Source of the DNA: an uncultured Actinomycetota bacterium
GTDB lineage: Bacteria > Actinomycetota > Actinomycetes > CAWDCV01
Reading direction: 5' to 3'
NCBI GenBank assembly: GCA_963728125.1
Contig: CAVSIZ010000017.1
Coordinates: 15,923 to 79,922 of the forward strand
DNA: 64,000 nucleotides
Within the stretch, counting starts at the first letter, position 1; each line of letters begins with the position of its first letter. This document shows, piece by piece, positions 2,550-45,273 of this stretch. The translations under genes and the position numbers were made by a program. Under the pieces are notes generated by a model. It was not told the DNA's origin and ran no database searches. It worked only from the letters and a program-made list of their open reading frames with translations.

Positions 2550-3641
2550 ATGTGCACCTCGGAAACGGCGCCCGGGGAGGGGCACGTGGGGGATCGTCTA
2601 CGCGCTGCGCAGACTTACGGGGACGAACTCGATCGATCGACGCCGACATTGGTGGCCGGAGCCGGTGGTTTCATCGGTGGTCATCTTGTCGGTTGGCTGA
2701 ACGCGAAGGGCTTCGAGCGAATTCGAGCGGTCGACGTCAAACCGCTCGAATATTGGTACCAGCGCCATCCCGGTGTAGAGAGTGCGCAACTCGACCTCTC
2801 CACCCTGGACGGTTGCCGCGCGGCTGCCCAAGACATGGGGTACGTGTTCAATCTGGCCGCCGACATGGGCGGGATGGGCTTCATCACTGCCGAACGCGCC
2901 CGGTGCATGCTCACGGTTCTGACAACCACTCATCTGCTGATGGCAGCGAATGATGTCGGCGCTGAACGGTATTTCTACGCCTCCTCCGCCTGCGTGTATC
3001 CGGATTACAAGCAGGACACGTCCAACGTCCAAGCATTGCGTGAAGAGGACGCGTATCCCGCCATGCCCGAGGACGGTTATGGCTGGGAGAAGCTGTTCGG
3101 TGAGCGGCTAGCCAGGCACTTCACCGAGGACTTCGGCCTGAATACCCGGGTCGCGCGCTATCACAACGTCTATGGTCCGTGGGGGACGTACGACGGGGGC
3201 CGCGAGAAGGCGCCGGCCGCAATCTGCCGCAAGGTGGCGCAGGCGGTCATCTCCGGTGTCCCCGAGATCGAGATCTGGGGTGATGGGGAGCAAACCCGCA
3301 GCTTCATGTACGTGGACGACTGCATCGAGGGCACCGTGCGGCTCTTCGCCTCCGATCACGCCACGCCGATCAATATCGGCAGCAGTGAGCTCGTCACCAT
3401 CAACGAGATGGTGTCGATCTGCGAGAGCTTCGCTGACGTGACGCTCAAGCGGACCTACGTGCTCGACGCTCCGCAAGGGGTTCGGGGTCGCAACAGCGAC
3501 AACACCACCATCTCCGCCACGCTCGGGTGGGAGCCGTCCACCTCGCTCGTCGAGGGGCTGGAGATCACCTACCGCTGGATCTACGACCAGCTGGTGTCCG
3601 GCAAGCCCAACCAGCGCGCACCTGCGCTCACATCTGTCTGA
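2550..3641 (+). CDS. NAD-dependent sugar-nucleotide epimerase, GDP-mannose 3,5-epimerase-like
   Basis: Rossmann motif VAGAGGFIGGHL. Signatures DMGGMGFI, YASSACVYP and GGREKAPAAICRK are characteristic of the GDP-mannose 3,5-epimerase family. Its stop overlaps the next start (TGATG at 3641). Confidence 0.75.
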   Translation: MCTSETAPGEGHVGDRLRAAQTYGDELDRSTPTLVAGAGGFIGGHLVGWLNAKGFERIRAVDVKPLEYWYQRHPGVESAQLDLSTLDGCRAAAQDMGYVFNLAADMGGMGFITAERARCMLTVLTTTHLLMAANDVGAERYFYASSACVYPDYKQDTSNVQALREEDAYPAMPEDGYGWEKLFGERLARHFTEDFGLNTRVARYHNVYGPWGTYDGGREKAPAAICRKVAQAVISGVPEIEIWGDGEQTRSFMYVDDCIEGTVRLFASDHATPINIGSSELVTINEMVSICESFADVTLKRTYVLDAPQGVRGRNSDNTTISATLGWEPSTSLVEGLEITYRWIYDQLVSGKPNQRAPALTSV

Positions 3642-4543
3642 TGGGGTTTCGGGCGCACGAGAACGGGGTCGTTCGGCCCGTCATCCTGCTCGGCGCACCT
3701 CGGTCGGGGACGTCGCTCCTCGCCGACATTCTCGGCAGCCACCCGGATGTGGCGCTGTTGCGTGAGCCGCGGCTGGTCTGGCGGTACGGCAACGACGGTC
3801 GCTCCGACCAACTCGGTCCGCAGCACGCCACCCCGAAGGTCGTTGAGCACATCCATCGCTGCTTCGCGGCGGTCCTCACGGAAGAGGGTGCGGATCGGAT
3901 CGTCGAGAAAACGCCGGCCAACTCGGTCCGTCCCCGGTTCGTGGAAGCGGTGTTCCCGGACGCCCGCTACGTCCACATCACGCGCAACGGCTGGGCGACC
4001 GTGCCGGCCATCCGATCGTTCTGGGAGCGGCGCGGCACCGGTCTCGACCGGCGACAGCTGCGCAAGGCGCGCCGACGGTTCTCCGAGGCGAGCCTGCGAC
4101 AGGTGCCTCACTACGCGCTGGAAGCCGCGCGACGGGTGACAAGGAGCCGACGTACCGCGCTGTACGGCCCGCGGCTAGCGGGGATGCAGGACGTGGTCGA
4201 CGAGCTGGGCCGCCTCGAAGCTGCGGCCCAGCAGTGGCGTACCTGCGTCGACCAGGTGACGGTGTTCGGACGCGATGTCGGACCGGGGCGCTACACGGAG
4301 ATCCAGCTCGAGACGCTCGACCTCAAGGTGCTCGAGTCGGTCCTCGACTTCTGCGACCTATCGCGCTCACCGCAGGTCCTCGACCGGTTCACCGAGCGGT
4401 ACCGGCTCGAGGAGGGGACCAGCCGGCAACCGCTCAGCGCCAGCGAAGAAGCAGTCATTGCGCCGTACGTCGAACCGGCCAATGCCTGGCTGGGGTACCC
4501 GGCCGCGAGCCCGTCCCGCCTCGATGACGGCGACCGGCGATGA
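3641..4543 (+). CDS. sulfotransferase family protein (PAPS-dependent)
   Basis: 5'-phosphosulfate-binding loop LLGAPRSGTSLLADIL and an EKTPANS region. Start MGFRAHEN overlaps the upstream stop. Confidence 0.7.
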   Translation: MGFRAHENGVVRPVILLGAPRSGTSLLADILGSHPDVALLREPRLVWRYGNDGRSDQLGPQHATPKVVEHIHRCFAAVLTEEGADRIVEKTPANSVRPRFVEAVFPDARYVHITRNGWATVPAIRSFWERRGTGLDRRQLRKARRRFSEASLRQVPHYALEAARRVTRSRRTALYGPRLAGMQDVVDELGRLEAAAQQWRTCVDQVTVFGRDVGPGRYTEIQLETLDLKVLESVLDFCDLSRSPQVLDRFTERYRLEEGTSRQPLSASEEAVIAPYVEPANAWLGYPAASPSRLDDGDRR

Positions 4544-5463
4544 CGCTCACCGTCGTGTACATCGTCGGCGCCCGAAATTGCGGGTCGACGATGCTGGACG
4601 CCCTGCTGGGCGCGGCACCCGGTGCGCGCAGCCTGGGCGAGGTCGGCGGATTCCAGCGGTACGAGCCGGATCGCCCGTGCGCGTGTCAACAGCCGCAGCC
4701 CTGCGCGGCGTGCACATCCGCCCTCGCCACGATCGAGACGAGGGGATCCTTCGCGGCATACCGGGAGCGCGCCAATGCTCCACTCAAGGAGCGCCGCTTC
4801 TTCTGGGCCCTGTGGCGCACCCCTGGCCGGCGAGCGTACGCACGAGACGCCGACAGCATCTTCGACGCGGTCGCCGCGACCACGGGCAGCCGCATCCTCA
4901 TCGATTCGTCGAAGAACATTTCCCGAGCAGCTGCCCTTGCCGGAGACAGTCGCCACGACATCCGCGTGCTGCATCTCGTCCGCGATGGCCGTGGGGTGCT
5001 GCGGTCGCGCCGTAAGCGCGCCGAAGTCGACGGTCGGCCTTATCGCGAGACTGCTTCGCTGGCCGAGTGGCTCGGGAAGAATCTGATGATCTCCTGGCTG
5101 CTCGCTCGCCGGCTGCCGGCCGACCGCTTCCTCCTCGCCCGCTACGAGGACCTGCTCGCCGATCCCGGGAAGGAGCTGACCAGGATCGGTGCGTTCGCCG
5201 ACCTGGACCTCGCTGCCGTTGTCGAGGCAGCGATGACGACCGGCGTCGAACGACTGCACCTCTTCGAGCCGATGCGCCGCACCGACTACCGGCTGGTCAC
5301 ACTCGACCCCACCCGGCTGGCCGGGCAGCGACAGAGCCCGCGCGAGAACCGCCGCTATTGGCGAGGCGGCGGCTTCCTGTCGGCTCGCTGGGGCTACGAC
5401 AGGGACCAGAGCTACCTCGACCAGCTGCCGACCGCTGTGTCGACAACGAGCTCGACCGGGTGA
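4540..5463 (+). CDS. sulfotransferase family protein (second, divergent paralog) with a Cys-rich insert
   Basis: P-loop-like VGARNCGSTMLDALLG and an LHLVRDGRGV region typical of Stf-type sulfotransferases. Insert CACQQPQPCAAC (CxCx5CxxC). Start ATG overlaps the upstream stop (ATGA at 4540). Confidence 0.65.
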   Translation: MTLTVVYIVGARNCGSTMLDALLGAAPGARSLGEVGGFQRYEPDRPCACQQPQPCAACTSALATIETRGSFAAYRERANAPLKERRFFWALWRTPGRRAYARDADSIFDAVAATTGSRILIDSSKNISRAAALAGDSRHDIRVLHLVRDGRGVLRSRRKRAEVDGRPYRETASLAEWLGKNLMISWLLARRLPADRFLLARYEDLLADPGKELTRIGAFADLDLAAVVEAAMTTGVERLHLFEPMRRTDYRLVTLDPTRLAGQRQSPRENRRYWRGGGFLSARWGYDRDQSYLDQLPTAVSTTSSTG

Positions 5464-5477
5464 CTCGGCGATCAGTC

Positions 5478-6610
5478 ATGCGCGTCGCCCTCGTCCACAA
5501 CTTTCACACGCGGGGCATCCCGAGCGGTGAGGACGTCGTGGTCCTGGCCGAGGCGGCAGCACTGCAGCGCGCCGGCGTCGACGTTCAGATCGTCGGGACC
5601 AGTAACGATGAGATGGCAAAGCAGCCGGCCGCGCCCCTGCGAGCAGCCTGGGCAGTCACCACCGGGATCGGCGTCTCACCTGAGTCTGACCTGCAGCGCT
5701 TCGACCCGGACGTGGTCCACATTCACGGGACGTTTCCGTACCTCGACCGACGCTGGCTGCGTCGGCTGAACGTGCCCATCGTGGTCACGTCGCACAACTA
5801 CCGGCCGATGTGCGCGAACGGCTACCTGTTCCGCGACGGCCACGTCTGCACGCGCTGCCTTGACGGGCAGCCCTGGTCGGGCGTGCGCTACGGCTGCTAC
5901 CGCGGCTCGCGGGTGGCTTCCGTGCCCCTCGCGGTTGGCTCGATGAGGGGAGCAGCCCGCGATCCGGTTTTGCGTGCCGCCGACCGGGTGCTGGCCCTGT
6001 CCGATCGAGCGAAGTCGGTGCTGGTGCGCGCTGGCGTCCCCGAGAATCGACTCGTGCTCGACCACCACTTCCTGCCCGACGACCTCGACGCGGGCGTCAG
6101 CCCCGCGCGCGATGACTCGTGGATCTTCGTCGGGAGGCTGAGCCCGGAAAAGGGCATCGACCGAGCTCATCGCGCAGTGGCCGGACGACGAGCCGCTCCG
6201 AGTGGTCGGCGACGGCGAACTCCGCGCACAACTCGAGCGGGATGCGGCAGCGAAACCGATCCGGTTCCTGGGAAACTTGCCTCGACACGACGTCATCGAC
6301 GCAGGTAAAGGGGTCGTTCGGGGTGATCTTCCCGAGCCGGTGGTACGAGACGTTCGGCCTCGTCTACATCGAGGGGCTGGCCTGTGGCGTGCCGACGGTC
6401 GCGTTCGACCCCAACGTCGTCGCCGATGCCGTCGCACGTGAGGGAACCGGACAGCTTGCTCACTGGGATGCCGTGGGTGATGCCCTGACAGCTGCTCGCG
6501 GTCGCTTCAATGATCTGCGCGCTCACTGCCGGCGCGTCTTCGAGGAGCGCTACACCGAGAAGGCGTTCGTCGAGCGACGACTCGCCCTGTATGCCGGGCT
6601 GATCGAATGA
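5478..6610 (+). pseudogene. GT4 family glycosyltransferase, interrupted by two frameshifts
   Basis: N-terminal part (MRVALVHNF...HNYRPMCANGY...SWIFVGRLSPEKGID) is in frame 0. The middle part (LIAQWPDDEPLRVVGDGELRAQLE...IRFLGNLPRHDV) is in frame +1 from about 6163. The C-terminal EX7E region (GSFGVIFPSRWYETFGLVYIEGLACGVPTV) is in frame +2 from about 6305. Confidence 0.7.
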
Positions 6611-7968
6611 CCATTCAGCTGAGTCCCCGATCGCCCGCAGCCCCGCCCGCCCGACCGGCGCGCGACTCGCGGCGGCTGCCGCTGCTCGCCTTGCTCGTCT
6701 TCCTTGCCGTCCTGCCGCTGGAGTGGATCACCTTCGCCGGCGTGCAGGAGGGATTCGTCAAGCCGTTCCACGTCGCGGCCCTCGTCTTGATCGTCGTGGC
6801 GCTGGCCCGCTGGCGGCCGCGGCGGCTGATCGGGCCCATCCTGAGCCGCTACTCAGTGGTGTACGTCGGGTACACCCTCGCCCTCGCGGCGACGTTCTTC
6901 GGCGGCCTCACCTACGCCGACCCCTACCTGTCGCGCGCTGAGACCTTCCGCAACGGCTTCTACCTGGTCACGTCGGTGGTGATCGCGGGCGTCGTCGTCG
7001 CGTTGATGGCCCGCCCGCCGCGGTCCGGGCTGGCCTGGGCCGGCGTGCTCACCCTGGGCACCCTGCTGTTCGCGCTGGTCACGGCCCTGGCAGCGCAGCG
7101 ACTCAACCCCTTCGCCATCATCGGCGACGCGTTGGTCCAGCAGGATCCTGACATCATCTCCCGCCAATTGCTGCGGACCGCGTTCCGCACCGATGCCGGG
7201 CTCGACGACGCTGCTCCGAACCTGCGCCACAAGGTGTTCGGCGGCCTTCTCGTTGCGGTATTCCTCGGGCTGGCCTGCCGGTCGCTGGTCGACCGACGCC
7301 GCACCGTGCTGCGCACCGTGCTGGCGATTGGTGGTGCAGTGGGCTGCCTGGTGGTCGTGCTCTCGCTCAGCCGCTCGATCACCGTATGCGTCGTCATCAC
7401 GCTAGCCCTGTTTCCGCTGCGCAGCCTGGTGATGAATCGCGTCCGGCCACTGCGGGCTGCCGTGGCCGCGATGATCGTCCTGGTGATTGGCGTGCTAGCC
7501 GTGTCGCCGGTGGGGCAGCTGGTCTTCGCCCGTTTCGGCGAGACAGGGTCGTACGAAGCGCGGCTGCAGGCGGCGGGGCCATCGTTCCTCGAAGAAGCCC
7601 TTCCTGCTGCAGTTGTCGGGACGACCAATACGGCGGTGGAGACGGCCCCGCACAACCAGATCCTGAACGCCTGGCTGGCGGGCGGTGTGATCGCCGCGAT
7701 TGCCGTCGGCCTCATGCTCTTCTTCCTGCTCCGGCTGTGGGTGCAGCTGGCGTTGCGTTACCTCACCGGCCGCCCGGGCTGGGTGCTCCCGGTGAGTCAG
7801 GCCTGGGTGCTCGGCGTCGGAATCATCCCGCTCGTGCGGTCAGTAACGTCCGGCAGCCTGTTTCACATGGTCGAGTGGACGGCCATCGGGATCTTCCTCG
7901 GCGTGCTCCTCGCCAACGAGCGGGCAGCGAGATCGCTCAATGCCGGGCCGGATGGAGGGAGTCGATGA
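6607..7968 (+). CDS. O-antigen ligase / Wzy-like polymerase family integral membrane protein
   Basis: About 10-12 predicted TM helices. Wzy_C-type motifs LSRSITVCVV and ETAPHNQILNAWLAGGVIA (HNxxL). Start overlaps the stop of the upstream GT4. Confidence 0.65.
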   Translation: MTIQLSPRSPAAPPARPARDSRRLPLLALLVFLAVLPLEWITFAGVQEGFVKPFHVAALVLIVVALARWRPRRLIGPILSRYSVVYVGYTLALAATFFGGLTYADPYLSRAETFRNGFYLVTSVVIAGVVVALMARPPRSGLAWAGVLTLGTLLFALVTALAAQRLNPFAIIGDALVQQDPDIISRQLLRTAFRTDAGLDDAAPNLRHKVFGGLLVAVFLGLACRSLVDRRRTVLRTVLAIGGAVGCLVVVLSLSRSITVCVVITLALFPLRSLVMNRVRPLRAAVAAMIVLVIGVLAVSPVGQLVFARFGETGSYEARLQAAGPSFLEEALPAAVVGTTNTAVETAPHNQILNAWLAGGVIAAIAVGLMLFFLLRLWVQLALRYLTGRPGWVLPVSQAWVLGVGIIPLVRSVTSGSLFHMVEWTAIGIFLGVLLANERAARSLNAGPDGGSR

Positions 7969-8534
7969 CGGAGTTGTCGTCGGCTTCGCCTGCAATCGGG
8001 GATCCGCGGAGCACGCCGTTCGAGGTCACGAGCGTGTCGCTGATGTCGTGGCGCGCGATCGCTGACCCTCCCGTGCTGTCGCTCGGCGATCACGAGATAC
8101 GCATCGACACAGGTGTCATGTCTGCCACCTTGGCCTACCGGCCCTGGCCCGGCCTGCCGCCGGCGCTGCCAACCGGCACGTGGAAGGGCGTCCTGCAGAG
8201 CCTCGACGCCGTGCCGGATCACAGGGAAGCCGGTGCCGGGCTGCTGCGCTTCGGCTTCCTCGGCGCACCGCTGCACACGGCGCTGCATCAGGTCGTGGAT
8301 ACGAGTGCGCTGGACATGTCGTACTGCTCGATTCACCGGCATCCCGACGAGGGCGAGTTCAACCTCATGCTGCCGGCCGAGAACGCGACGTTGGACTACG
8401 AGGTGTACGAGACCACCTGGACCACTGTCCGCGCGCCGACGCAGCTGTGGTTCTCGCGCGGTGTCGCCCACGGCGCGAGGGCGGTATCGGGAATCGGATT
8501 CTTCTTTGTCCTCCGATTGCCCGAGGATCCTTAG
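7965..8534 (+). CDS. hypothetical soluble protein
   Basis: 189 aa ORF starting MTELSSASPAIG, with ATGA overlap to the upstream stop. Composition is balanced rather than Arg/Ala/Pro-biased. No motif recognised. Confidence 0.4.
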   Translation: MTELSSASPAIGDPRSTPFEVTSVSLMSWRAIADPPVLSLGDHEIRIDTGVMSATLAYRPWPGLPPALPTGTWKGVLQSLDAVPDHREAGAGLLRFGFLGAPLHTALHQVVDTSALDMSYCSIHRHPDEGEFNLMLPAENATLDYEVYETTWTTVRAPTQLWFSRGVAHGARAVSGIGFFFVLRLPEDP

Positions 8535-10339: not shown

Positions 10340-10347
10340 GCCGCGTC

Positions 10348-13669: not shown

Positions 13670-13677
13670 GGTTCCCC

Positions 13678-15521: not shown

Positions 15522-15558
15522 TTACGACCGGGAGCTCGTCGGGATCCGGATGCGATCC

Positions 15559-21501: not shown

Positions 21502-22316
21502 TCGCCGGCGCGGGCGCCCTGGGCGGCCGACGCCCGGACGGGCTGGGCCTGACTGGCGAGCCAGGCGCGCCACGACGAGCTGTCGATGTCCGGGCCGACC
21601 GCTACGTGAGCGCCGACCCAGGCACTCACGTAGCGAATGCCGTGCAGCGCGTTCACGATCCACACGGTCCGGCCCGCGAACTCGTCCAGCCGGCAGCAGA
21701 CCTCGCGTACCTCGATCCCACACTCGCGCGCGTGCTGCTGGAGCAGCCGCGTAGTGACGCCCGACAGCGTCGGCAGCGACGACGACGGCAGGCACAACGC
21801 GCCATCCGCCCACCACAGCAGGTTGGACGTCGCCGTCTCCACTACGTGACCAGACGTGCTCCGCAACAGGACATCATCGGCGCCCGCTGCGGCAGCCGCC
21901 TGCCGCCAGTCAGCGAGCACGCCGAGATCGGGACCCTTCCGCCGGGGGACGCGGCGCGGATCCACCGAGTCCGAGACCCGCACGCGGGCCTGCTGGAAGC
22001 GCGGTGGCGCCGACCGCAGGCGCAGCGCCAGCCGACCGCGCGGACGGCTCGCGAGCTCTACCCGCGGGAACCACGTTCCCGTGGACGGCAGCTGGTCGAC
22101 GGCGGCCGCCCAGAACGCCGCCACCGTGGCAGCCGACACGCCGCCGACCTCGGCACATGCCGTGGCAAAGCGCGCTGCATGCAGGTCGAGTCCGCGCACC
22201 GCCCCGTCGTGGAGCAACCACGAGTCAGCAGCGAGCAGCGGCGCATGCGCCGATTCCTGCTCAGGGGCGCTCATGAGGCCAGCAGCCTCGGACCACACGA
22301 GCAGCGAATCAGCCAA
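21498..22316 (-). CDS. class IV aminotransferase-fold protein, aminodeoxychorismate lyase (PabC)-like
   Basis: 272 aa, matching the length of fold-type IV PLP enzymes. ETATSNLL motif. Start overlaps the end of the PabAB gene. Confidence 0.6.
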   Translation of the reverse strand: MADSLLVWSEAAGLMSAPEQESAHAPLLAADSWLLHDGAVRGLDLHAARFATACAEVGGVSAATVAAFWAAAVDQLPSTGTWFPRVELASRPRGRLALRLRSAPPRFQQARVRVSDSVDPRRVPRRKGPDLGVLADWRQAAAAAGADDVLLRSTSGHVVETATSNLLWWADGALCLPSSSLPTLSGVTTRLLQQHARECGIEVREVCCRLDEFAGRTVWIVNALHGIRYVSAWVGAHVAVGPDIDSSSWRAWLASQAQPVRASAAQGARAGD

Positions 22317-24399
22317 GACGCGAAGCCTGCTGTTCGCGTCCGGGGAATGTCGCGCCGAGCAGGCGCAGCAACGGCGCGGCCTTGACCGCGGTCTCCTCGA
22401 ACTCTTCGGCCGGATCGGATAGGGCGACGATCGCGCCGCCGACGCCGTACGTCACCCGCTCCGGCTCGACCACGGTCGTCCTGATCACGATGCTCAGGTC
22501 AGCGGCACCGGACAGCGAGAAGTACCCGATGGCACCGGAGTAGACCCCGCGCGGCCCCGCCTCGAGCGAGTCGATGATCTTCATGGTGCGGATCTTCGGC
22601 GCTCCGGTCATCGAGCCGCCGGGGAACGCCGCGCGCACGCACGCCACCGCCGACGTGTCAGAGCGCAGCGTCGACTGAACGGTGCTCACCAGCTGGTGAA
22701 CGGTCGCGTACGTCTCTACATCGAACAGCTTCGGCACCCGCACCGTGCCGATCTCGGCCGTACGTCCGAGGTCGTTGCGCACCAGGTCGACGATCATCAG
22801 ATTTTCTGAGCGATCCTTTTCGCTCGCGACCAGGTCGTGCCGGAGCAGCTCGTCGGCTTGCGTGGTCTTCCCCCGCGGCCGAGTGCCCTTGATCGGTTTG
22901 GACTCCACCACGGCATCCCTGCCGACGCGCAGGAAGCGCTCGGGCGACGTACTGAGTACCGAGAACCAGCCGCAGCGCAGCAGCGCGCCGAACGGTGTCG
23001 GGTTGACCGCTCGCAGCGCCCGGTAGCTCCGCCACGGGTCGACGGTGCCGCGGGCCTCGATCATGTTGGTGAGGCAGACCTCGTAGGTCTCCCCCGCGAC
23101 GATGGCCTCGTTGCAAGCATCGATCAGCTTCAGGTACTGCTCGCGGTCATGTCGGATGTGGACGTCGGGAAGCGCGGGCAAGTCTTCGGCCGGCGCGGGC
23201 AGCTGACCGACGAGAGAGGTCAGCACCTCCGCCGTGTCGCGCAGCCAGGAACGGGCGGCTTCGTCGTCATCGCCTGAGAGGGCCAGCAGGTACGTCGTCC
23301 ACGACCCGTGATCGAACACGACGGCGCGGTCCGCGAACAGCATCATCGCGTCAGGCTGAGGGGACGTGTGGACGCGATCGCCGCCGCACTCGGACTTGAG
23401 CTCGTAGCCGAGATAGCCCACCCAGCCAAGAGCGAAGTCGAAGGGAAGGCTTGGTACGTCCACATCCAAGCCGCGCAGGTCACGGTCGAGCCAGTCGAGG
23501 AACTCGCTCTGGATGACGTCACCTCCATCCGAGCCCTGCACCGTGACTATGCCCCGCTGGGTGTCAGCGACCACCGTCCGTGCCAGCGGCCCGTCGGCGC
23601 AGCCCATCACCGAATAGCGACCGATGCCGTGGTCCTGCCGACTGCTGTCCAACCAGAACGAAACGTCGCGGTCGCCGAACAGCCTCGCGAAGACGACCTC
23701 GTCGTCCCAGCGCGTCTGCAGCGTCTCGACGTGCACCCGCAGCCGGGTCCGCGACTCCTGCTTCTCCACCCGTGCTGGCGAGGTCGCGGGCTCGGTCCGG
23801 GCGGTCGCCCGCGTCCGGCCCTGATGGCTCCTTGTGAGGTCAGCGAAGTTCGCGAGCAGCCGATGTCCATGCTCGGTGCTGATCGATTCGGGATGGAATT
23901 GCACGCCCCACAGCGGCCGCTGCCGATGCCGCAGCCCCATCAGCACGCCGTCCGGGGTCCAGGCGATGGGTTCGAGATCGTCAGGGAGGTCGGTAGCTGC
24001 TAGCGAGTGATAGCGCACCGCTTCGAATGGCGAGGGCAACCCGGCGAACACGTCGACCTGCTTGTGCAGGACCGGAGATACGCGGCCGTGCCGCGGCTCG
24101 GGGGCCCGACCCACGACACCGCCGAGCAGGTGGGCGATGGCCTGGTGACCGAGGCAGACACCAAGCACCGGCAGGTCGCCCTGCTCGATGATCTCCCGGC
24201 ATAGCCCGATGTCACTGGCGCGCGCTGGCGTTCCCGGGCCGGGCGAGATCACCACGTTGTCGAAGCTGTCGAGCCAGTCGAGTCGCCACGCCGGATCGTC
24301 GTTGCTGATGACCTCCGGCGGGGTCTCGTTCACCTCAGCCAAGTAGTGGAACAGGTTGTACGTGAACGAGTCGTAGTTGTCGACGAGAAGCGTGCGCAT
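22309..24399 (-). CDS. pabAB: aminodeoxychorismate synthase, fused glutamine amidotransferase (PabA) and component I (PabB)
   Basis: N-terminal GATase (MRTLLVDNYDSFTYNLFHYL, GVCLGHQAI with catalytic Cys). C-terminal chorismate-binding domain (KPIKGTRPRGKT, AAFPGGSMTGAPKIRTMKIID, GVYSGAIGYF). Start overlaps the stop of the upstream phosphotransferase (TGATG). Confidence 0.85.
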   Translation of the reverse strand: MRTLLVDNYDSFTYNLFHYLAEVNETPPEVISNDDPAWRLDWLDSFDNVVISPGPGTPARASDIGLCREIIEQGDLPVLGVCLGHQAIAHLLGGVVGRAPEPRHGRVSPVLHKQVDVFAGLPSPFEAVRYHSLAATDLPDDLEPIAWTPDGVLMGLRHRQRPLWGVQFHPESISTEHGHRLLANFADLTRSHQGRTRATARTEPATSPARVEKQESRTRLRVHVETLQTRWDDEVVFARLFGDRDVSFWLDSSRQDHGIGRYSVMGCADGPLARTVVADTQRGIVTVQGSDGGDVIQSEFLDWLDRDLRGLDVDVPSLPFDFALGWVGYLGYELKSECGGDRVHTSPQPDAMMLFADRAVVFDHGSWTTYLLALSGDDDEAARSWLRDTAEVLTSLVGQLPAPAEDLPALPDVHIRHDREQYLKLIDACNEAIVAGETYEVCLTNMIEARGTVDPWRSYRALRAVNPTPFGALLRCGWFSVLSTSPERFLRVGRDAVVESKPIKGTRPRGKTTQADELLRHDLVASEKDRSENLMIVDLVRNDLGRTAEIGTVRVPKLFDVETYATVHQLVSTVQSTLRSDTSAVACVRAAFPGGSMTGAPKIRTMKIIDSLEAGPRGVYSGAIGYFSLSGAADLSIVIRTTVVEPERVTYGVGGAIVALSDPAEEFEETAVKAAPLLRLLGATFPGREQQASRLG

Positions 24400-25853
24400 C
24401 AGTGCGCCCCGACGCCGCGGATGACGGCGCGCCCGGTCTTCCACAAGATGTGCAGGTCGAGCGGCAGCGACCAGTTCTCGACGTACCGCAGGTCGATGAG
24501 CACCGAGTCCTCCCACGACAGGCTGGCCCGGCCACTCACCTGCCACAGACCCGTGAGCCCCGGCTTCACCAGCAACCGCCGTCGTACGTCGTCGCCGTAC
24601 TGCGCGACCTCGCAGGGCAGCGGCGGGCGCGGGCCCACGAGCGACATCTGGCCCAGCAACACGTTGACCAGCTGCGGCAGCTCATCCAGTGACCAGCGGC
24701 GCAGGAACCGCCCAACCGGCGTGATGCGCGGATCGTGGCGCATCTTGAAGAGCACGCCGTCGTGATCGTTGCGATCGAGGAGGTAGTCCCGCTGGCGCTC
24801 CGCACCGACGACCATCGTGCGGAACTTGTAGATGGTGAACGTTCGGGAGTTGATGCCGACCCGGGTCTGCCGGAACAGCGGTGGGCCGCCGTCGGCCAGC
24901 CAGATCCAGCACCCGATCGCCACCATCACCGGGGCCAGCAGGACAAGCCCCACGGCCGCAACCGACCGGTCGTAGACGGCCTTGGTGACCTTGCCCGCTC
25001 CGGACAGCCGCGGGCGCTCGACGTGCAGGAGCGGGAGTCCAGCGACCGGTCGAACCGTGATGCGCGGTCCCGCGACCTCGATCAGTCCCGATCCGACGAC
25101 CAGGTCTGTCTCGGATGTCTCGAGCGACCAGGCGAGACGGCGCAGTGCAGCGCCGGACAGTTCCGCGTTGGACAGCACCGCGACCGTATCCGCGTGGACG
25201 TCGCGCACGGCTTGGGCAACCGTGCTGAAGGTCCCGACGACCGGAACGCTGGGATCGAGATCGGTGGGCCGCTCGGCGTTCTCCGGCAGACACACGCCGG
25301 CGACAGACAAGCCGTGCGCCTTCTCCCGGCGCAGCTGCCGAACGCAGTCGGACACCGCCCACGGCGCGCCCACCACGATGGTGCGATGCACGCACTGCCC
25401 GGCTCGGCGTTGCCGCCGCAGCCGGATTCGTAGTGCCCAGCGAGCAAGCAGGTCGAGAACGATGACGAGTGGGATCGCGACCAGGACGTAGCCACGCGCG
25501 ATCTCGGCGTCGGTCGCGTACGAGACGAACGCCACCACGGCCATGAGCGCCACGCCGGCGTGGAGCACGCGACGCAACTCCTCGGTGCCGACGCCCATGT
25601 ATCGCCGCTCGTACGCCCGATTCGCGGCGACGATGGCCACCCACACCAGGGGAAAGAGCGCCGATCCGATGAGGTACGCCGGCTGCAGCGGGGCATCGCC
25701 GGATCTCGATGACAGCGCGACGATCGCGGCAATGCCCGCAACGACCGCATCAGCCGCGACCGCGTTCGCGATGTAGGAGACCTGCCAGTCGCGGGTGTCG
25801 GCATCGGCAGGGGACGTGGCCACGCTCGAGTCAGGCAGGCCGAGGATCGACAT
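24399..25853 (-). CDS. polyprenyl-phosphate sugar phosphotransferase (WbaP/CpsE-like initiating glycosylphosphotransferase), copy 1
   Basis: Five N-terminal TM helices. C-terminal catalytic domain RTFTIYKFRTM...HDPRITPVGRFLRRWSLDELPQL...GQMSLVGPRP...KPGLTGLWQV. Confidence 0.85.
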   Translation of the reverse strand: MSILGLPDSSVATSPADADTRDWQVSYIANAVAADAVVAGIAAIVALSSRSGDAPLQPAYLIGSALFPLVWVAIVAANRAYERRYMGVGTEELRRVLHAGVALMAVVAFVSYATDAEIARGYVLVAIPLVIVLDLLARWALRIRLRRQRRAGQCVHRTIVVGAPWAVSDCVRQLRREKAHGLSVAGVCLPENAERPTDLDPSVPVVGTFSTVAQAVRDVHADTVAVLSNAELSGAALRRLAWSLETSETDLVVGSGLIEVAGPRITVRPVAGLPLLHVERPRLSGAGKVTKAVYDRSVAAVGLVLLAPVMVAIGCWIWLADGGPPLFRQTRVGINSRTFTIYKFRTMVVGAERQRDYLLDRNDHDGVLFKMRHDPRITPVGRFLRRWSLDELPQLVNVLLGQMSLVGPRPPLPCEVAQYGDDVRRRLLVKPGLTGLWQVSGRASLSWEDSVLIDLRYVENWSLPLDLHILWKTGRAVIRGVGAH

Positions 25854-25987
25854 GACCCCATCCCCCCACGACGTGGCCTCTCCCCCCGAAGAAGCTTGCC
25901 CGGCGTTGGCTTGCCCAGGGCCAACGTGATGTCTGAATTCAAGCAGATGTGCCGCTCGGACCAGTGGGCGGCCGGTTGCGGCGCGTC

Positions 25988-27259
25988 CTAGCCCGAGCCG
26001 AGGCTGCTGTCCCCGTCGACGATCATGCCGGCGCCGACGGTGACGTTCGTTGCCTCGTCGATGACGATGAATCCGCCGGTGGTGCGGCTGCGGACGTACG
26101 GGTCGGCGAACAGCGGTGCCTGGGTGCGCAGTCGCACCCGACCGACCTCGTTGAGGTGGAGTCCGGTGGCGTCGGACTGGCGGTGCAACGTGTTGACGTC
26201 GAGCCGGTACTGCAGCTCCTTGACGATGGCCTTCACCGAGCGGGTGGTGTGCTTGATCGTGTACTTCTTGCCCGGGATCAGCGCCGCGCGATCGTCCATC
26301 CAGCACAGCATCGCGTCGATGTCCTGGTTCATCGCTGGCCGGTTGTGCGGGCGGCAGATCATGTCACCCCGCGAGACGTCGATCTCGTCCTCGAGGCGCA
26401 GCGTCACCGACATCGTGGGGAACGCCTCCTCCAGCGGACCGTCGAGACCGTCGATGGCGGCGATGCGGCTGGTGAAGCCGCTCGGCAAGACGACGACCTC
26501 ATCGCCCACTCGCAGCACCCCGCCGGCGACCATGCCGGCATAGCCGCGGTAGTCCTGACCGCGACTCGACATCGGACGCAGCACGTACTGCACCGGGAAG
26601 CGCACATCGACGAGGTTGCGGTCGCTGGCGACGTGCACGTTCTCCAGGTGATGCAGCAGCGTCGGTCCCTCGTACCACGGAGATCGCGTCGAACGCTGCA
26701 CGACGTTGTCGCCGTGCAGCGCCGAAATGGGGATGAACGACAGGTCCGGAGCGCTGAGCTTCGTTGAGAACGCGCTGAACTCCGACCGGATCGACTCGAA
26801 GACGTCCTCGGACCAGTCGACGAGGTCCATCTTGTTGACGACGAGCAGCAGGTGCGGCACCCGCAGCAGGGACACGAGGAACGCGTGCCGGCGACTCTGC
26901 TCGACGATGCCCTTGCGGGCGTCGATGAGGACGAGCGCGAGGTCCGCGGTGGACGCGCCAGTCACCATGTTGCGCGTGTACTGGATGTGCCCCGGCGTAT
27001 CAGCAATGACGAACTTGCGTCGCGGCGTCGCGAAGTAGCGGTACGCCACATCGATCGTGATGCCCTGCTCGCGTTCGGCGCGCAGCCCATCCGTGAGCAG
27101 CGCCAGGTTGGTGTACTCGTCGCCGCGGTCGCGACTGGTGCGTTCGACGCTCTCCAGCTGATCCTCGAAGATCGCCTTGCTGTCGTAGAGCAACCGACCG
27201 ATCAGCGTGCTCTTGCCGTCGTCGACGGAGCCCGCGGTCGCCAGGCGCAGGATGTCCAC
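25988..27259 (-). CDS. cysN: sulfate adenylyltransferase subunit 1 (GTPase), no fused APS-kinase domain
   Basis: GTP-binding motifs GSVDDGKSTL, DTPGH and NKMD. 423 aa, so no CysC domain is fused. Confidence 0.9.
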   Translation of the reverse strand: MDILRLATAGSVDDGKSTLIGRLLYDSKAIFEDQLESVERTSRDRGDEYTNLALLTDGLRAEREQGITIDVAYRYFATPRRKFVIADTPGHIQYTRNMVTGASTADLALVLIDARKGIVEQSRRHAFLVSLLRVPHLLLVVNKMDLVDWSEDVFESIRSEFSAFSTKLSAPDLSFIPISALHGDNVVQRSTRSPWYEGPTLLHHLENVHVASDRNLVDVRFPVQYVLRPMSSRGQDYRGYAGMVAGGVLRVGDEVVVLPSGFTSRIAAIDGLDGPLEEAFPTMSVTLRLEDEIDVSRGDMICRPHNRPAMNQDIDAMLCWMDDRAALIPGKKYTIKHTTRSVKAIVKELQYRLDVNTLHRQSDATGLHLNEVGRVRLRTQAPLFADPYVRSRTTGGFIVIDEATNVTVGAGMIVDGDSSLGSG

Positions 27260-28167
27260 TAGAAATAGCCCTCTCGCTTACGGTCCTCCATCGCGGCCTC
27301 GCTGAACTTGTCGTCCCCGCGAGTCGCGCCGCGCTCGGTGACACGCGTGGCTGCGACCTCGGCAATCACCTTCTCGACCGTGTCGGCGTCCGACTGCACG
27401 GCGGCGGTCAACGTAGCGTCGCCCACGGTCCGGTAGCGCACTCGCGCCGTGAACACCGGCTCGTCGGCCCGTGGCTGGCAGAACTCGTTCGCGGCGAACA
27501 GCATCCCTTGCCGCAGGAACACGTCGCGGTCGTGCGCGTAGTAGATGTTCGGCAGCGCGAGCCGTTCCTGCGCGATGTACGACCACACGTCGAGCTCGGT
27601 CCAGTTCGACAGCGGGAACACGCGCAGGCTCTCGCCGAGATGAATGCGCCCGTTGTAGAGGCTCCACAGCTCGGGACGCTGATTCTTCGGATCCCACTGA
27701 CCGAACTCGTCCCGGAAGGAGAAGATGCGCTCCTTCGCGCGCGCCTTTTCCTCGTCTCGCCGCGCGCCGCCGAAGAGTGCGGTGAAGCGATGCTTCTCCA
27801 CGGCTTCGAGCAGCACCGGCGTCTGAATGCGGTTACGCGAACCGTTTGGCTCCGGCGTGACCAGACCGCGCTCGATCGCATCCTCGACCGAGGCGACGAG
27901 GAGCTGAACGCCGAGCTCGGTTACCCGCCGATCGCGGAACTCGAGCACCTCGGGGAAGTTGTGCCCGGTGTCGACGTGCATCACCGGGAACGGGATCGGT
28001 GCGGGTCGGAACGCCTTCTCCGCCAACCGCAGCATGACGATGGAATCCTTGCCACCGGAGAACAGGAGTACCGGTCGCTCGAGCTCCGCGGCCACCTCGC
28101 GGATGATGTAGGTCGCCTCCGACTCGAGGACCGCGAGCTGATCCAGGCGGTAATCAGGTGGGCTCAT
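27259..28167 (-). CDS. cysD: sulfate adenylyltransferase subunit 2
   Basis: PAPS-reductase-like fold LLFSGGKDSIVMLRLA, plus HVDTGHNFPE. Its stop overlaps the start of cysN. Confidence 0.9.
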   Translation of the reverse strand: MSPPDYRLDQLAVLESEATYIIREVAAELERPVLLFSGGKDSIVMLRLAEKAFRPAPIPFPVMHVDTGHNFPEVLEFRDRRVTELGVQLLVASVEDAIERGLVTPEPNGSRNRIQTPVLLEAVEKHRFTALFGGARRDEEKARAKERIFSFRDEFGQWDPKNQRPELWSLYNGRIHLGESLRVFPLSNWTELDVWSYIAQERLALPNIYYAHDRDVFLRQGMLFAANEFCQPRADEPVFTARVRYRTVGDATLTAAVQSDADTVEKVIAEVAATRVTERGATRGDDKFSEAAMEDRKREGYF

Positions 28168-28934
28168 CGGAGGGCCTCGATCGAGGTGGCGGAGTCGAGT
28201 GCCACGAGGAGCTCGACGGCGAGCTCGGGTCGACAGACGACGAGGTCGGGCAGGTACGGATTCGCCGCATTGTAGGTAAGCGGGGAGCCGTCGAGGCGAC
28301 TGCAGTACAACCCGGCAGCGCGCGCCACCGCTACCGGCGCGGCGGAATCCCACTCATATTGACCGCCGGCGTGAACATAAGCGTCCATTTCGCCGAGCAG
28401 CACCGTCGCCACCTTGAAGCCCGCCGATCCCCACGGCACCACATCGGCGGACAGGTCGGCCAACGCGGCGAGGACACCGGCATCTGCGCGAGATCGGCTC
28501 ACCGTCGCCCGCCAGGGACCGGCGTTGCGTGGTGGTACGGCCGGCGGTGAATCTGTAGCCAGCGTCATCGATCGGCCCGGTAGCGCAACCGCGCCGGCAA
28601 CGAGTTCACCACGTTCCCACAGCGCGACGTGCACGCCCCAGTCCTGCCGGCCCTCGGCGTACTCGCGGGTGCCGTCGAGCGGATCGACGATCCAGACCCG
28701 ATCGGCGTGCAGTCGAGCTGCGTCGTCGGCTGCCTCCTCGCTCAGCACGGCGTCGTCGGGACGCAGCCGGTGCAGCTCGTCGGCCAGGAACGCCTGCGCA
28801 GCGCTGTCGCCAGCTGCGCGCAGGTCCTCGCCAGCGGTCAAATCGCGACGCAGCCGCAGCAGCAGGTCGCCGGTCTGCTCCGCAAGACGGCGCGCCAGTG
28901 CCGCGTCGACACCAGCGGATCGGGACGCAGCCAT
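28164..28934 (-). CDS. cysQ: 3'(2'),5'-bisphosphate nucleotidase (PAP phosphatase), inositol-monophosphatase family
   Basis: Motifs WIVDPLDGTREY and WDSAAPVAVARAAG. Its stop overlaps the start of cysD. Confidence 0.8.
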   Translation of the reverse strand: MAASRSAGVDAALARRLAEQTGDLLLRLRRDLTAGEDLRAAGDSAAQAFLADELHRLRPDDAVLSEEAADDAARLHADRVWIVDPLDGTREYAEGRQDWGVHVALWERGELVAGAVALPGRSMTLATDSPPAVPPRNAGPWRATVSRSRADAGVLAALADLSADVVPWGSAGFKVATVLLGEMDAYVHAGGQYEWDSAAPVAVARAAGLYCSRLDGSPLTYNAANPYLPDLVVCRPELAVELLVALDSATSIEALR

Positions 28935-28938
28935 AAAG

Positions 28939-30354
28939 TCAGTAGGCCCCTTTGCCGCTGAGGACGGCGCGGGCGGTCTTCCAGAGGATGACCGCGTCGA
29001 GGGTCAGCGACCAGTTCTCGACGTACCGCAGGTCGAGCTCGATCGTCCGTTCCCAGGACAGGTCGCTGCGGCCGCTGACCTGCCACAGGCCTGTCAGGCC
29101 AGGCCGGACGTTGAGCCGGCGCAGCTCGTGCGGGAGGTACGCCCCGACCTCGGACGCCATCGGCGGCCGCGGACCGATGAGCGACATCTGGCCGCGCACC
29201 ACGTGCCACAGTTGCGGCAGTTCGTCCAGCGAAAAGCGGCGAAGGAACCGGCCGACCGGAGTGATCCGGGGATCATGGCGGATCTTGAACATGTGTCCGT
29301 CGTGCTCGTTGAACTGTTCCAGTCCGGCGCTGCGCACCTGCTCGGCGTCCTGGATCATCGTCCGAAATTTGTAGCACGTGAACGGTCGGCCGTTGTAGCC
29401 CATCCGCGTCTGCGCGAAGAACACCGGGCCGGGGCTCGTCACCCTGACGAGGATCCCGATGACAAGCAGCACCGGCGACAGCACGATCAGGCCGGCGGCC
29501 GCCGCGGTCCACTCCAGCACCCGCTTGATCTGTCGACGCACACCCCGATACGCGGGTTGGGCGACCTCGAGCAGAGGCAACGACCCGGCGGGCCGAACGA
29601 TGACGCGGTGCGGCATCACCTCGCGCAGATCAGGGGCAACGAGCACCCGAACGCAAGATTGCTCCAGGTCCCAGGACAGCCGGCGCAGCACCTCACCGTC
29701 GAAGGCGGGCCCCGGCACGAACAGCACGACGTCGATGTCGTGCTCCGCCACGACGGCCCCCACGCGCTCAGGGGCCGCGAGTCGAAGCACGCCGGACATG
29801 GACGCGACGTCGTCTGGCTCCGGAGTGCACGCGCCCACGACGTTCCAGCCCAGGCGCGGGTCGACGCTGAGTGCGCCGGCGATGGAGACCGTCGCGTTCG
29901 CATCACCGACGATCAGCACGCGGTTAGCGCCCTGACCGGTCGTCCACTCGCGCTGCACCGCTCGGCGCAGCATCAGGCGTCCCAGGAGAGACACCGTCAC
30001 CGTCGCCGGGACGAGCAGCGCGATCTTCGCCGCCACGGGAATCCCCAGGACGGCCGAGCCCACGGCCGCGAGACCGAGCGACCACGCCCCGGCCATCAAG
30101 ACGCGACGGAACTCCGCCCAGCCACCGCCCAGCAGCGCGCAGTCGTATCCACCTGCTGCTGTCAACAGGAGCGGCCAGAGCACGATCGCAGCCGCCGCCA
30201 CCGGACCGGGACGGACGAACAAGAGAACGATCGACGCCGCCAGGATGTCGACCGCAACGACCGGCAGCCGTCCCGCCAGCTGCTTGGCCAGTCGCCCGCG
30301 AGCCACGGGGGTCGCCCGTGTGGCAGGCGAAACTGCCCTTTCGAACACTGTCAT
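28939..30354 (-). CDS. polyprenyl-phosphate sugar phosphotransferase (WbaP/CpsE-like), copy 2
   Basis: Paralog of 24399-25853 with the same catalytic motifs: FTCYKFRTM...HDPRITPVGRFLRRFSLDELPQL...GQMSLIGPRP...RPGLTGLWQV. Confidence 0.85.
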   Translation of the reverse strand: MTVFERAVSPATRATPVARGRLAKQLAGRLPVVAVDILAASIVLLFVRPGPVAAAAIVLWPLLLTAAGGYDCALLGGGWAEFRRVLMAGAWSLGLAAVGSAVLGIPVAAKIALLVPATVTVSLLGRLMLRRAVQREWTTGQGANRVLIVGDANATVSIAGALSVDPRLGWNVVGACTPEPDDVASMSGVLRLAAPERVGAVVAEHDIDVVLFVPGPAFDGEVLRRLSWDLEQSCVRVLVAPDLREVMPHRVIVRPAGSLPLLEVAQPAYRGVRRQIKRVLEWTAAAAGLIVLSPVLLVIGILVRVTSPGPVFFAQTRMGYNGRPFTCYKFRTMIQDAEQVRSAGLEQFNEHDGHMFKIRHDPRITPVGRFLRRFSLDELPQLWHVVRGQMSLIGPRPPMASEVGAYLPHELRRLNVRPGLTGLWQVSGRSDLSWERTIELDLRYVENWSLTLDAVILWKTARAVLSGKGAY

Positions 30355-45269: not shown

Positions 45270-45273
45270 GCCC

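Follow-up and report, generated by a model that had tools for sequence, protein, structure and literature searches.

To our knowledge, the acyl decorations known from bacterial polysaccharides are small aliphatic groups, for example acetyl, succinyl, pyruvyl and hydroxybutanoyl moieties. The exopolysaccharide loci of XrtA/PEP-CTERM systems include a cassette of an AMP-forming ligase and an unrelated pair of alpha/beta-fold proteins which NCBIfam lists as 'hypothetical equivalogs' (TIGR03098 ligase, TIGR03100 hydrolase 1 and TIGR03101 hydrolase 2); we know of no function assigned to this cassette, and literature searches recovered no paper on the function of the exosortase-associated ligase and hydrolases. 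PabAB and PabC supply the p-aminobenzoate starters of actinomycete natural products, including the aromatic polyene macrolides. In mycobacteria, the chorismate pyruvate-lyase Rv2949c and the p-hydroxybenzoate (p-HBA)-AMP ligase FadD22 form a route for the synthesis and activation of an aromatic acid (PMC7205293). Loci for sulfated capsules also are known, for example in Vibrio sp. KMM 8419 (PMC11641403). Here we describe a locus with features of all of these systems at positions 2550–30354 of a 64,000-nucleotide stretch of DNA from an uncultured Actinomycetota bacterium (contig CAVSIZ010000017.1; the entire stretch is termed the window below). We consider it moderately probable, on the basis of gene families and synteny, that this is a multi-operon envelope or exopolysaccharide locus in which glycan assembly is combined with sulfation and with an aromatic acylation cassette.

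The G+C content of the window is ~67%. As raw lists of open reading frames (ORFs) are unreliable at this composition, genes were called from third-position GC bias (GC3) and all GC3-supported ORFs were scanned against Pfam and NCBIfam hidden Markov models (HMMs). Nearly all of the gene families that a first-pass annotation of the window had assigned were confirmed in place by these models, and the gene content, domain architecture, folds and synteny of the locus could be described directly. The comparison with related loci centers on a trio of genes, encoding a catalytic 3-deoxy-D-arabino-heptulosonate 7-phosphate synthase (DAHPS), a DAHPS paralog and an aryl ligase, that were adjacent and in that order in all ~16 divergent Actinomycetota loci examined (L001/L007, L003/L008, L004, L005/L006, L009–L014, L090–L092, L094, L095, the P0035 contig and L172), with identities of 37–76%. 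The trio in L172 was reversed in the locus as fetched, and the fragment L093 contained part of the paralog only. The paralog family was found solely in uncultured Actinomycetota, and a metagenome scan with the paralog profile yielded only four further true loci, all of which were short. The flanks of the trio, where available, nearly always carried glycan genes (GT2/GT4, Wzy_C, Bac_transf, MraY-like glycosyltransferase family-4, Wzz-kinase, polysaccharide deacetylase, DegT and UDP-glucose dehydrogenase). Most of the related loci also had a pair of alpha/beta-fold proteins of the HydA and HydB types described below and a small acyl carrier protein (ACP) nearby, and some included a sulfotransferase, sulfatase, adenosine 5′-phosphosulfate (APS) kinase or FAD_binding_3 monooxygenase. 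No polyketide synthase (PKS), ketosynthase (KS), non-ribosomal peptide synthetase (NRPS) condensation, lipid-elongation or siderophore genes were detected within 10 kb in the ~16 loci. Thus, the proposal that the glycan genes and the aromatic and ACP genes belong together, which the first-pass annotation had made from the window alone, was supported by the synteny comparison.

The first gene of the trio (17497–18303, + strand) encodes a catalytic type I-beta DAHPS of 268 residues that consists of the core barrel only (TIGR01361, 345.8 bits; cutoff 267.75). The catalytic motifs Cys, KPRTS, DPSH, Glu and Asp were all retained and EVHP was intact, whereas the regulatory domain was lacking. Assignment of this protein as a Kdo8P-like or ulosonic-acid sugar synthase was rejected: the protein possesses KPRTS and not KANRS, it exceeds the DAHPS cutoff, and Kdo8P models scored far lower. 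The second gene (18304–19941, + strand) specifies a fusion of 545 residues with three domains, namely a ferredoxin-like regulatory domain, a DAHPS barrel and a chorismate-lyase-fold domain. Residues 8–351 aligned with the type I-beta DAHPS of Thermotoga maritima (PDB 1rzm/1vr6) over both the regulatory domain and the barrel (E-value 2e-47), and the match to TIGR01361 (181.3 bits) was beneath the cutoff. The GPCSVES motif with the metal-binding Cys is replaced by ASSRWAS, KPRTS has disappeared, and DPSH is altered to DPSQ. Judged by these losses, the paralog is catalytically dead as a DAHPS, as was recognized in the first-pass annotation which nevertheless overlooked the C-terminal lyase-fold domain of ~190 residues. 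The paralog therefore shares its ferredoxin-like domain and barrel with the Thermotoga enzyme, but differs from the latter in the absence of the Cys, KPRTS and His elements, in the appended lyase-fold domain and in the presence of a separate, active partner that comprises the core alone.

The C-terminal domain (19357–19938) of the paralog is separate and well conserved. A profile of the domain matched PDB entry 2nwi, which belongs to PF01947 ('Chorismate pyruvate-lyase Rv2949c-like'), with an E-value of 0.001, and an AlphaFold model with a predicted local distance difference test score (pLDDT) of 81.6 adopted the chorismate-lyase/UTRA fold. An exhaustive HMMER search with the profile recovered only 66 relatives among 1.84 billion representatives, two of which are bona fide PF01947 members (P0300, E-value 2e-6; P0304, E-value 8e-5). 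When the family of the domain and the PF01947 members were aligned jointly, columns for an Arg, an LG motif and a Glu proved to be common to both, and the Arg and Glu were invariant. The domain also exists as a stand-alone protein. Natural fusions were observed in other metagenomic lineages: the lyase-fold domain is joined directly to an AMP-binding ligase in P0256 (709 residues), and the DAHPS-like paralog is fused to an AMP-binding ligase in P0071 (890 residues). At the level of domain architecture these fusions tie the lyase-fold, DAHPS-like and ligase functions together. It is concluded from these sequence relationships that the domain probably represents a family that is sister to, yet divergent from, the lyases of the Rv2949c type, and it most likely is an enzyme that is predicted to make the substrate of the ligase. 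The universal conservation of the lyase-fold domain points to a 4-hydroxybenzoate-type acid which probably is the core supply of the cassette, with the 'PABA-type' character as a lineage-specific addition.

It has to be weighed whether the 545-residue protein instead is a regulatory pseudoenzyme, the ferredoxin-like and UTRA/lyase-fold domains of which would sense aromatics and govern the DAHPS, with the acid for the ligase coming from PabAB and PabC in the window and, in other lineages, from the environment or another source. The ferredoxin-like domain mediates feedback in the Thermotoga DAHPS. Here the catalytic DAHPS is without the regulatory domain which the dead paralog retains, an arrangement that favors this interpretation together with the failure of the C-terminal domain to match any Pfam lyase. 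However, the invariant Arg and Glu columns are those of PF01947 members, the occurrence of the domain on its own or fused to a ligase without the DAHPS part, as in P0256, fits an enzyme that feeds the ligase better, and most loci would be left devoid of an acid-forming enzyme. We therefore regard a purely regulatory role as quite improbable and favor the lyase-fold domain as the predicted source of the acid.

The third gene of the trio (19941–21501, + strand) encodes an aryl-acid adenylating enzyme resembling benzoate-CoA ligase and FadD22, with an AMP-binding domain that is distributed between two frames in the window (TIGR02262, 66.9 + 332.4 bits). The models that it matched best are benzoate-CoA ligase, the p-hydroxybenzoate-AMP ligase FadD22 and 3-hydroxybenzoate-CoA ligase. 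The score with the FadD22 model NF004716 was 250.4 bits compared to a cutoff of 1228, and there was no PP-binding domain. A stand-alone ACP instead is encoded at 13364–13672 (− strand; ACP models, E-value 6e-12) and bears a DSL phosphopantetheine site; ACP homologues were found in eight related loci. By analogy, Rv2949c and FadD22 are the nearest characterized precedent for the steps of acid synthesis and activation. As in the mycobacterial p-HBA route, the genes of an actinobacterium place a PF01947-type lyase fold beside an enzyme that adenylates an aryl acid, and the pair would feed a cell-envelope glycoconjugate. In contrast to that route, the lyase fold has diverged too far to be recognized by PF01947 and forms part of a fusion with a dead DAHPS, the carrier is separate, no Pks15/1-type polyketide synthase is present, and the context is one of polymer assembly with Cys-type alpha/beta-fold proteins.

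This precedent raises an alternative in which the aryl-ACP would not serve to decorate a polysaccharide but would provide the aglycone, or the primer, for a phenolic glycoside or glycolipid, or else a unit from which an independent small molecule is built. The p-hydroxybenzoic acid derivatives (p-HBADs) and the phenolic glycolipids of mycobacteria are called to mind by such a product. Rv2949c and FadD22 provide an actinobacterial example in which sugars are added to a phenol (PMC7205293), and the FadD22 model is among the best matches of the ligase. Against this possibility, the absence of PKS, KS, NRPS condensation and lipid-elongation genes extends to 10 kb around the trio in ~16 loci, the loci carry the polyprenyl-phosphate phosphotransferases and the Wzy-type and Wzc-type proteins that are typical of polymers, and the ligase is both far from the FadD22 cutoff (250 versus 1228) and without a fused carrier domain. 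A glycolipid or small-molecule product accordingly appears distinctly unlikely, and attachment of the acid to a polysaccharide is preferred.

Two further genes for the supply of an aromatic acid converge on the ligase gene. A fused PabA-PabB aminodeoxychorismate (ADC) synthase is encoded at 22309–24399 (− strand) and includes GATase, Anth_synt_I_N and Chorismate_bind domains (TIGR00553, 381.9 bits, cutoff 328.4; PabA part, TIGR00566, 159.4 bits, cutoff 121.05). PabAB proteins make aminodeoxychorismate. The adjacent gene (21498–22316, − strand) specifies a class-IV enzyme, of the fold-type IV pyridoxal phosphate family, that is a candidate PabC-like ADC lyase (PF01063, Aminotran_4, E-value 6.6e-29, 101.8 bits, cutoff 28.5). 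The start of the latter is uncertain, with 292 residues called in related contigs. The best PDB matches of the protein are ADC lyases (E-value 1.4e-8), and inspection by eye located a Lys ~23 residues before an ADDVLL motif, which is the expected distance. Stop/start overlaps join the PabAB gene to the gene for polyprenyl-phosphate sugar phosphotransferase 2, which lies upstream of it, and the PabC-like gene to that for PabAB, and the pair runs tail-to-tail into the ligase gene. Outside the lineage of the window (L088 and L089), PabAB and the PabC-like gene were detected only in L172, a separate metagenome-assembled genome (MAG), where their position beside the ligase is kept at 57–67% identity. 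The set resembles clusters for p-aminobenzoate-started products in that a fused PabAB, here with a candidate lyase, is located beside a carrier protein and an enzyme that activates an aryl acid, and is unlike them in that no polyketide synthase is present, the neighbors are glycan-assembly genes and the PabC-like protein is highly divergent. In place of the Pab genes, a FAD_binding_3/Trp_halogenase-type flavoprotein adjoins the trio in L003 (7821–9137), L004 (7840–9138) and L091 (15213–16997). Hydroxylation or halogenation of the aromatic acid by this flavoprotein is conceivable and would imply that the aryl group varies between lineages.

The restricted distribution of the Pab genes bears on whether, within a genuine cassette, the PabAB and PabC-like proteins are nothing more than ordinary folate enzymes whose genes happen to lie in the operon, in which event the attached acid would be exclusively of the 4-hydroxybenzoate type. 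In Actinobacteria, pabAB and pabC commonly lie side by side as housekeeping genes. Moreover, the pair is missing from every related locus save the window lineage and L172, and the universally conserved supplier of acid is the lyase-fold domain. Conversely, a folate role does not readily account for the stop/start overlaps that connect phosphotransferase, PabAB and PabC-like genes, for the tail-to-tail arrangement with the ligase and its maintenance in L172, or for the divergence of the PabC-like protein below every ADC-lyase cutoff which is unusual for a housekeeping copy. The folate interpretation is a serious contender, albeit one that we consider unlikely. The prediction of PABA-type acylation in the first-pass annotation thus received partial support for this lineage from the gene overlaps and the conserved position in L172, but does not extend to the other loci in which the lyase-fold domain is the constant element.

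Three alpha/beta-fold proteins are encoded on the − strand. HydA (16461–17348) scored best with TIGR03101 (75.4 bits, cutoff 202.75, E-value 5e-21), and HydB (15559–16464), the gene for which has an ATGA overlap with that for HydA, with TIGR03100 (50.6 bits, cutoff 168.45, E-value 1e-13). TIGR03100 also was the best model for HydC (13678–14607; 47.8 bits, cutoff 168.45, E-value 1e-12). All three had been described as Cys-type proteins. This designation is correct for HydB and HydC, which possess Cys at the nucleophile elbow (GLCAG and GQCWG, respectively), but not for HydA in which Arg occupies the position (GMRWG). The G-x-C-x-G-G/A-R signature of HydB/HydC-type proteins is kept in all lineages, and the Arg of the HydA-type G-x-R-x-G motif was invariant in 25 of 25 homologues. 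In an AlphaFold2 model of HydA (pLDDT 90.5), R124 is positioned between a strand (118–123) and a helix (125–136), which is a canonical elbow, and the solved structures closest to it in fold belong to feruloyl, cinnamoyl and chlorogenate esterases and to lipases. The model is compatible with HydA acting either as a non-catalytic partner of the Cys-type protein that is encoded by the overlapping gene or in unusual chemistry. A membrane protein with a J-domain (14604–15488, − strand; PF00226, E-value 2.8e-14), one predicted transmembrane (TM) segment by hydropathy and a C-terminal domain of ~170 residues is encoded between the Cys-type genes HydB and HydC; it was absent from the earlier listing and is kept in L172.

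The combination of an unrelated alpha/beta-fold pair with an AMP-forming ligase inside an exopolysaccharide locus recalls the XrtA cassette. In contrast to the latter, HydA, HydB and HydC are far beneath the cutoffs of the families, the N-terminal fragment of the ligase scored 42.4 against a cutoff of 592.35, the host is of the Gram-positive type, the ligase is a benzoate-CoA-ligase-type enzyme, and a dedicated supply of chorismate-derived acid is present. No exosortase or PEP-CTERM protein was detected among the window ORFs scanned with Pfam and NCBIfam, and a profile search with HydA homologues never left the actinobacterial family and reached no named exosortase-associated hydrolase 2 proteins. 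An Acidimicrobiales locus, L173, is informative: HydA and HydB homologues (~50% identity) are accompanied there by an ACP (50%) and by the same ABC exporter (61%), and the locus also encodes Wzc, two sulfotransferases and CysD. The ligase of L173 is unrelated, an acyl-CoA dehydrogenase is present and DAHPS is lacking. The gene set of L173 therefore suggests that the hydrolase pair, ACP, ligase and exporter constitute a portable acylation cassette for which the acid supply varies.

The core of the locus is, by its gene families, an ordinary polysaccharide cluster of the lipid-carrier type. In such systems, polyprenyl-phosphate phosphotransferases initiate the glycan, GT4 enzymes extend it and Wzc-type proteins control polymerization. 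Sugar phosphotransferase 1 (28939–30354, − strand; TIGR03025, 391.4 bits) and sugar phosphotransferase 2 (24399–25853, − strand; TIGR03025, 400.6 bits; Bac_transf, E-value 7e-65) both exceed the TIGR03025 cutoff of 295.55. The two are full-length and in the same block, with a mutual identity of only ~44%, and may serve two lipid-linked intermediates or two glycans that share the locus. Glycosyltransferases of the GT4 family are encoded at 5478–6610 (+ strand), where the N- and C-terminal domains matched in two frames, and at 10348–11550 (− strand; WcaI-like in Pfam and NCBIfam). The homologue of GDP-mannose 3,5-epimerase (GME) at 2550–3641 (+ strand) matched Pfam Epimerase with an E-value of 1.2e-38 and the GME structures 8sg0/2c59 with an E-value of 9e-92; GME enzymes supply GDP-L-galactose or GDP-L-gulose. 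A polytopic protein with 11 TM segments predicted by hydropathy (6607–7968, + strand) is a candidate Wzy-type polymerase, and the related locus L090 contains Wzy_C. The Wzc-like co-polymerase/tyrosine autokinase (11547–13367, − strand) surpassed the TIGR01007 cutoff (132.5 versus 108.05 bits) and has a Wzz domain (E-value 1e-4); the true start of this gene may be ~13301, as the protein was called at 583 residues in L086. A fused ABC exporter (8531–10339, − strand) with ABC_tran and ABC_membrane domains resembles PglK, MsbA and HepA (E-values from 1e-65 to 1e-72, all under cutoff). Copies of the exporter adjoin the hydrolase pair in L172 and L173 (61–81% identity), and the protein is a candidate flippase or exporter of a lipid-linked glycan. 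A protein of 189 residues (7965–8534, + strand) has high GC3 and no Pfam match, and is conserved in L086–L089. Strain-level polymorphism was observed between the genes for the ABC exporter and the 189-residue protein, where a two-gene insertion for an 83-residue protein and a HicB-family antitoxin is present in L086 (11849–12426), L087 (11849–12426) and L089 (419–996), equivalent to window position ~8534, and absent from the window and L088.

Genes for sulfation are interspersed among those for glycan assembly. Sulfotransferase 1 (3641–4543, + strand) is NoeE-like, with a score of 74.6 bits with PF13469 (cutoff 27), an E-value of 2.4e-10 with the NoeE model and a PRSGTS motif for binding of 3′-phosphoadenosine 5′-phosphosulfate (PAPS). 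Sulfotransferase 2 (4540–5463, + strand; PF13469, 59.3 bits, cutoff 27) is encoded by a gene that is joined to the preceding one by an ATGA overlap. The large and small subunits of sulfate adenylyltransferase are specified by CysN (25988–27259, − strand; TIGR02034, 572.2 bits, cutoff 336.1) and CysD (27259–28167, − strand; TIGR02039, 428.9 bits, cutoff 396.6). CysN is without an APS-kinase domain as it corresponds to positions 23–432 only of the 632-position model of bifunctional CysNC. A CysQ-like 3′(2′),5′-bisphosphate nucleotidase for removal of 3′-phosphoadenosine 5′-phosphate (PAP) is located at 28164–28934 (− strand; Inositol_P, E-value 1.5e-34; TIGR01331, 102.7 bits, under the cutoff of 228.8). 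CysDN makes APS, and CysQ removes PAP. The presence of CysD/CysN and PAPS-type sulfotransferases inside a glycan locus parallels the NodPQ/CysDN and NoeE/NodH-type systems. Unlike these sulfated-glycan and Nod systems, the window has neither an APS-kinase domain nor an APS-kinase gene, and an aromatic-acid cassette is added. Thus, the sulfation supply that had been proposed is represented by at least two sulfotransferases, CysDN and the CysQ-like protein, but APS kinase is wanting in the window. No cysH, sulfite reductase or cysK was detected beside CysDN in the Pfam and NCBIfam scan, and sulfotransferases occur in some related loci only. Sulfation of the glycan is plausible from these genes, which form an incomplete set that is facultative among the loci.

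The locus had been viewed as one co-oriented operon. That description could not be maintained: GC3 frames and HMM matches revealed four blocks that alternate in strand, at 2550–8534 (+), 8531–17417 (−), 17497–21501 (+) and 21498–30354 (−), with convergence at 8531–8534 and 21498–21501 and divergence at ~17349–17496. At least four transcription units are implied by the four blocks. The stop/start overlaps at 3641, 4540, 6607, 7965, 11547, 16461–64, 19941, 22309, 24399, 27259 and 28164 are present as reported, but the ATGA and TGATG junctions join genes within each block only. A scan for promoters and terminators in the divergent region (17250–17600) revealed none, and an Rfam scan of the window detected a single tRNA and nothing else. 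The four-block layout might be taken to mean that co-location is circumstantial, with unrelated glycan, sulfur-assimilation, aromatic and esterase operons assembled in a variable region. That CysDN and CysQ also serve assimilation, and that linkage of the trio to sulfation genes and to Pab genes is not universal, are in accord with this possibility. It is countered by the recurrence of the trio, ACP and hydrolase pair with glycan genes down to 37% identity, including an Acidimicrobiales locus with a different ligase, by the translational coupling of the Pab genes to a phosphotransferase gene, and by the absence of assimilatory genes beside CysDN. Furthermore, the whole layout is kept in L172, in which proteins with 57–81% amino acid identity are encoded in the same order as in the window from phosphotransferase 2 to the Wzy candidate, which is the stretch recovered. 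A circumstantial assembly of genes is very improbable on this evidence, and a functionally connected multi-operon locus remains the favored interpretation.

Near-identical contigs from other samples, with ~99.2% DNA identity to the window, helped to assess two genes whose reading frames are disrupted. DNA alignment disclosed two single-nucleotide insertions (at ~6160 and ~6299) in the GT4 gene at 5478–6610 and an extra T (at ~20304) in the aryl ligase gene at 19941–21501, each of which is spread over two frames as a result. Intact counterparts exist for both, with 376 residues for the glycosyltransferase in L086 and 519 residues for the ligase in L088. In the near-identical contigs, the paralog and PabAB genes are broken instead, such that each assembly has its own set of broken genes, and the single-base indels fall in recurring contexts (TCG[A]C twice and GTCG[T]GTCG). 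The indels probably are errors of Nanopore assembly, and the contexts suggest systematic errors, perhaps at a methylation motif. True pseudogenization of the ligase and GT4 genes was considered and judged unlikely given the intact counterparts, the different genes that are broken in those contigs and the recurring contexts. Those related MAGs with MFD names derive from the Microflora Danica Nanopore survey of soils (PMC12313526). The first-pass annotation illustrates the limit of reading a single window: it overlooked the lyase fold, which is the decisive domain, and the arrangement of the strands, in a sequence in which likely assembly errors interrupt two genes.

The cluster is bordered on the right by the gene for phosphotransferase 1 (28939–30354, − strand), from which the gene for phosphoenolpyruvate carboxylase diverges at 30738. 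The cluster adjoins a conserved actinobacterial housekeeping block (33504–49077) with genes for a zinc-dependent alcohol dehydrogenase, pth, L25, prs, glmU, tRNA-Gln (38516–38589), ispE, ksgA, an RpfB-like protein, tatD and metG, and a protein O-mannosyltransferase is encoded further to the right (51005–52585). To the left, a gene at 246–2363 (− strand) encodes a parallel beta-helix protein related to pectate lyases and epimerases (PF12708, E-value 2.6e-28) that is secreted or anchored via an N-terminal hydrophobic segment. The protein is likely to be a glycan lyase or epimerase judging by its family, and the gene keeps its position adjacent to the cluster in the near-identical contigs L086 and L087. 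The window starts within another gene (2–265, + strand), the counterpart of which in near-identical contigs (L086, 20747–21809) encodes a protein of 310 residues with a faint sulfotransferase match and is followed by a further sulfotransferase gene. As near-identical contigs include further sulfotransferase genes, the glycan cluster therefore extends to the left of the window.

The favored interpretation can be set out as a pathway, the steps of which are predicted from gene families. The phosphotransferases, GT4 enzymes, GME, the Wzy candidate, the PglK-like exporter and Wzc would build a heteropolysaccharide on a lipid carrier. Sulfate would be added by the sulfotransferases with the support of CysDN and the CysQ-like protein, in which case APS kinase and the supply of PAPS would be encoded elsewhere. 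The unregulated DAHPS would raise flux through the shikimate pathway, and the lyase-fold domain would convert chorismate to a 4-hydroxybenzoate-type acid, to which PabAB and the PabC-like protein would add 4-aminobenzoate, or which they would replace with it, in the window lineage. The benzoate-CoA-ligase/FadD22-like enzyme would adenylate the acid and load it onto the stand-alone ACP, and HydB and HydC, paired with the Arg-type HydA, may then pass the aroyl group to the glycan via a Cys thioester. The substrates, the loading of the ACP, the acyl transfer and the final product are all inferred, as the first-pass annotation had itself said of the product chemistry. In its most specific form, which we advance tentatively and with a good deal less conviction than the overall assignment, the proposal is that soil Actinomycetota possess a dedicated, portable system for glycan aroylation in which a heteromeric Cys/Arg pair esterifies the acid onto a sulfated envelope polysaccharide that contains L-galactose.

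Several observations weigh against this interpretation. The organism is uncultured and represented by Nanopore MAGs, and all of the chemistry is prediction. Regarding the glycan genes, the Wzy candidate had been termed a Wzy-like polymerase/ligase, for which its 11 TM segments speak, but it had no Wzy_C match and indeed no match in Pfam or NCBIfam at all; no Wzx was found, with no Polysacc_synt match among the GC3-supported ORFs from 246 to 30354, and the ABC exporter is there instead. APS kinase was undetectable in the 64-kb window and in L086–L089 by tblastn with the APS kinase from L005 as query. Co-expression is unproven by the four-block layout. The ligase and one GT4 gene are frameshifted in the window, and the ligase indel is shared with the L089 assembly and may be a real allele. 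For the supply of acid, no Pfam match, including to PF01947/UbiC, was obtained when 13 members of the lyase-fold family were scanned at E-values up to 1, and hhalign of the profile to UbiC alone was not significant and misaligned. After 2nwi, UTRA ligand-binding domains were equally good structural matches, and on the structural model the domain could function in sensing instead of catalysis. The PabC-like protein is beneath all equivalog cutoffs for ADC lyases (at most 44 versus 177–273), and the Pab genes are absent from all loci beyond the window lineage and L172. Finally, the transfer step is complicated by the Arg at the expected nucleophile site of HydA and by the lack of an obvious catalytic His in the alignment of the window HydB.

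Literature searches recovered no account of an envelope glycan that bears an aromatic ester or amide together with sulfate, of aroyl-substituted polysaccharides, or of a glycan locus that unites sulfation genes with an aromatic-acid cassette. Equally, no description was found of a recurrent aromatic-acid cassette in glycan loci, of a fusion between a pseudo-DAHPS and a lyase, or of an Arg-type/Cys-type alpha/beta pair. By the scores reported here, the cassette fails the cutoffs of the exosortase-A families, PF01947 and FadD22, yet resembles each of them in its logic. As the cassette is distantly related to the exosortase-A hydrolase and ligase families, solving the function of one could explain both. 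Many uncultured Actinomycetota from soil share the cassette. Should the more specific, tentative proposal of a dedicated aroylation system hold, polysaccharides would be subject to a new class of modification, and a first clue would be gained to the function of the hydrolase and ligase cassettes of exosortase-type loci. If the favored interpretation is true, the lyase fused to a pseudo-DAHPS, the Cys-type aroyl transferases and their Arg-type partner would be new enzymes, and the aroyl group would alter the interaction of the polymer with metals, soil organic matter, phages and ultraviolet light.

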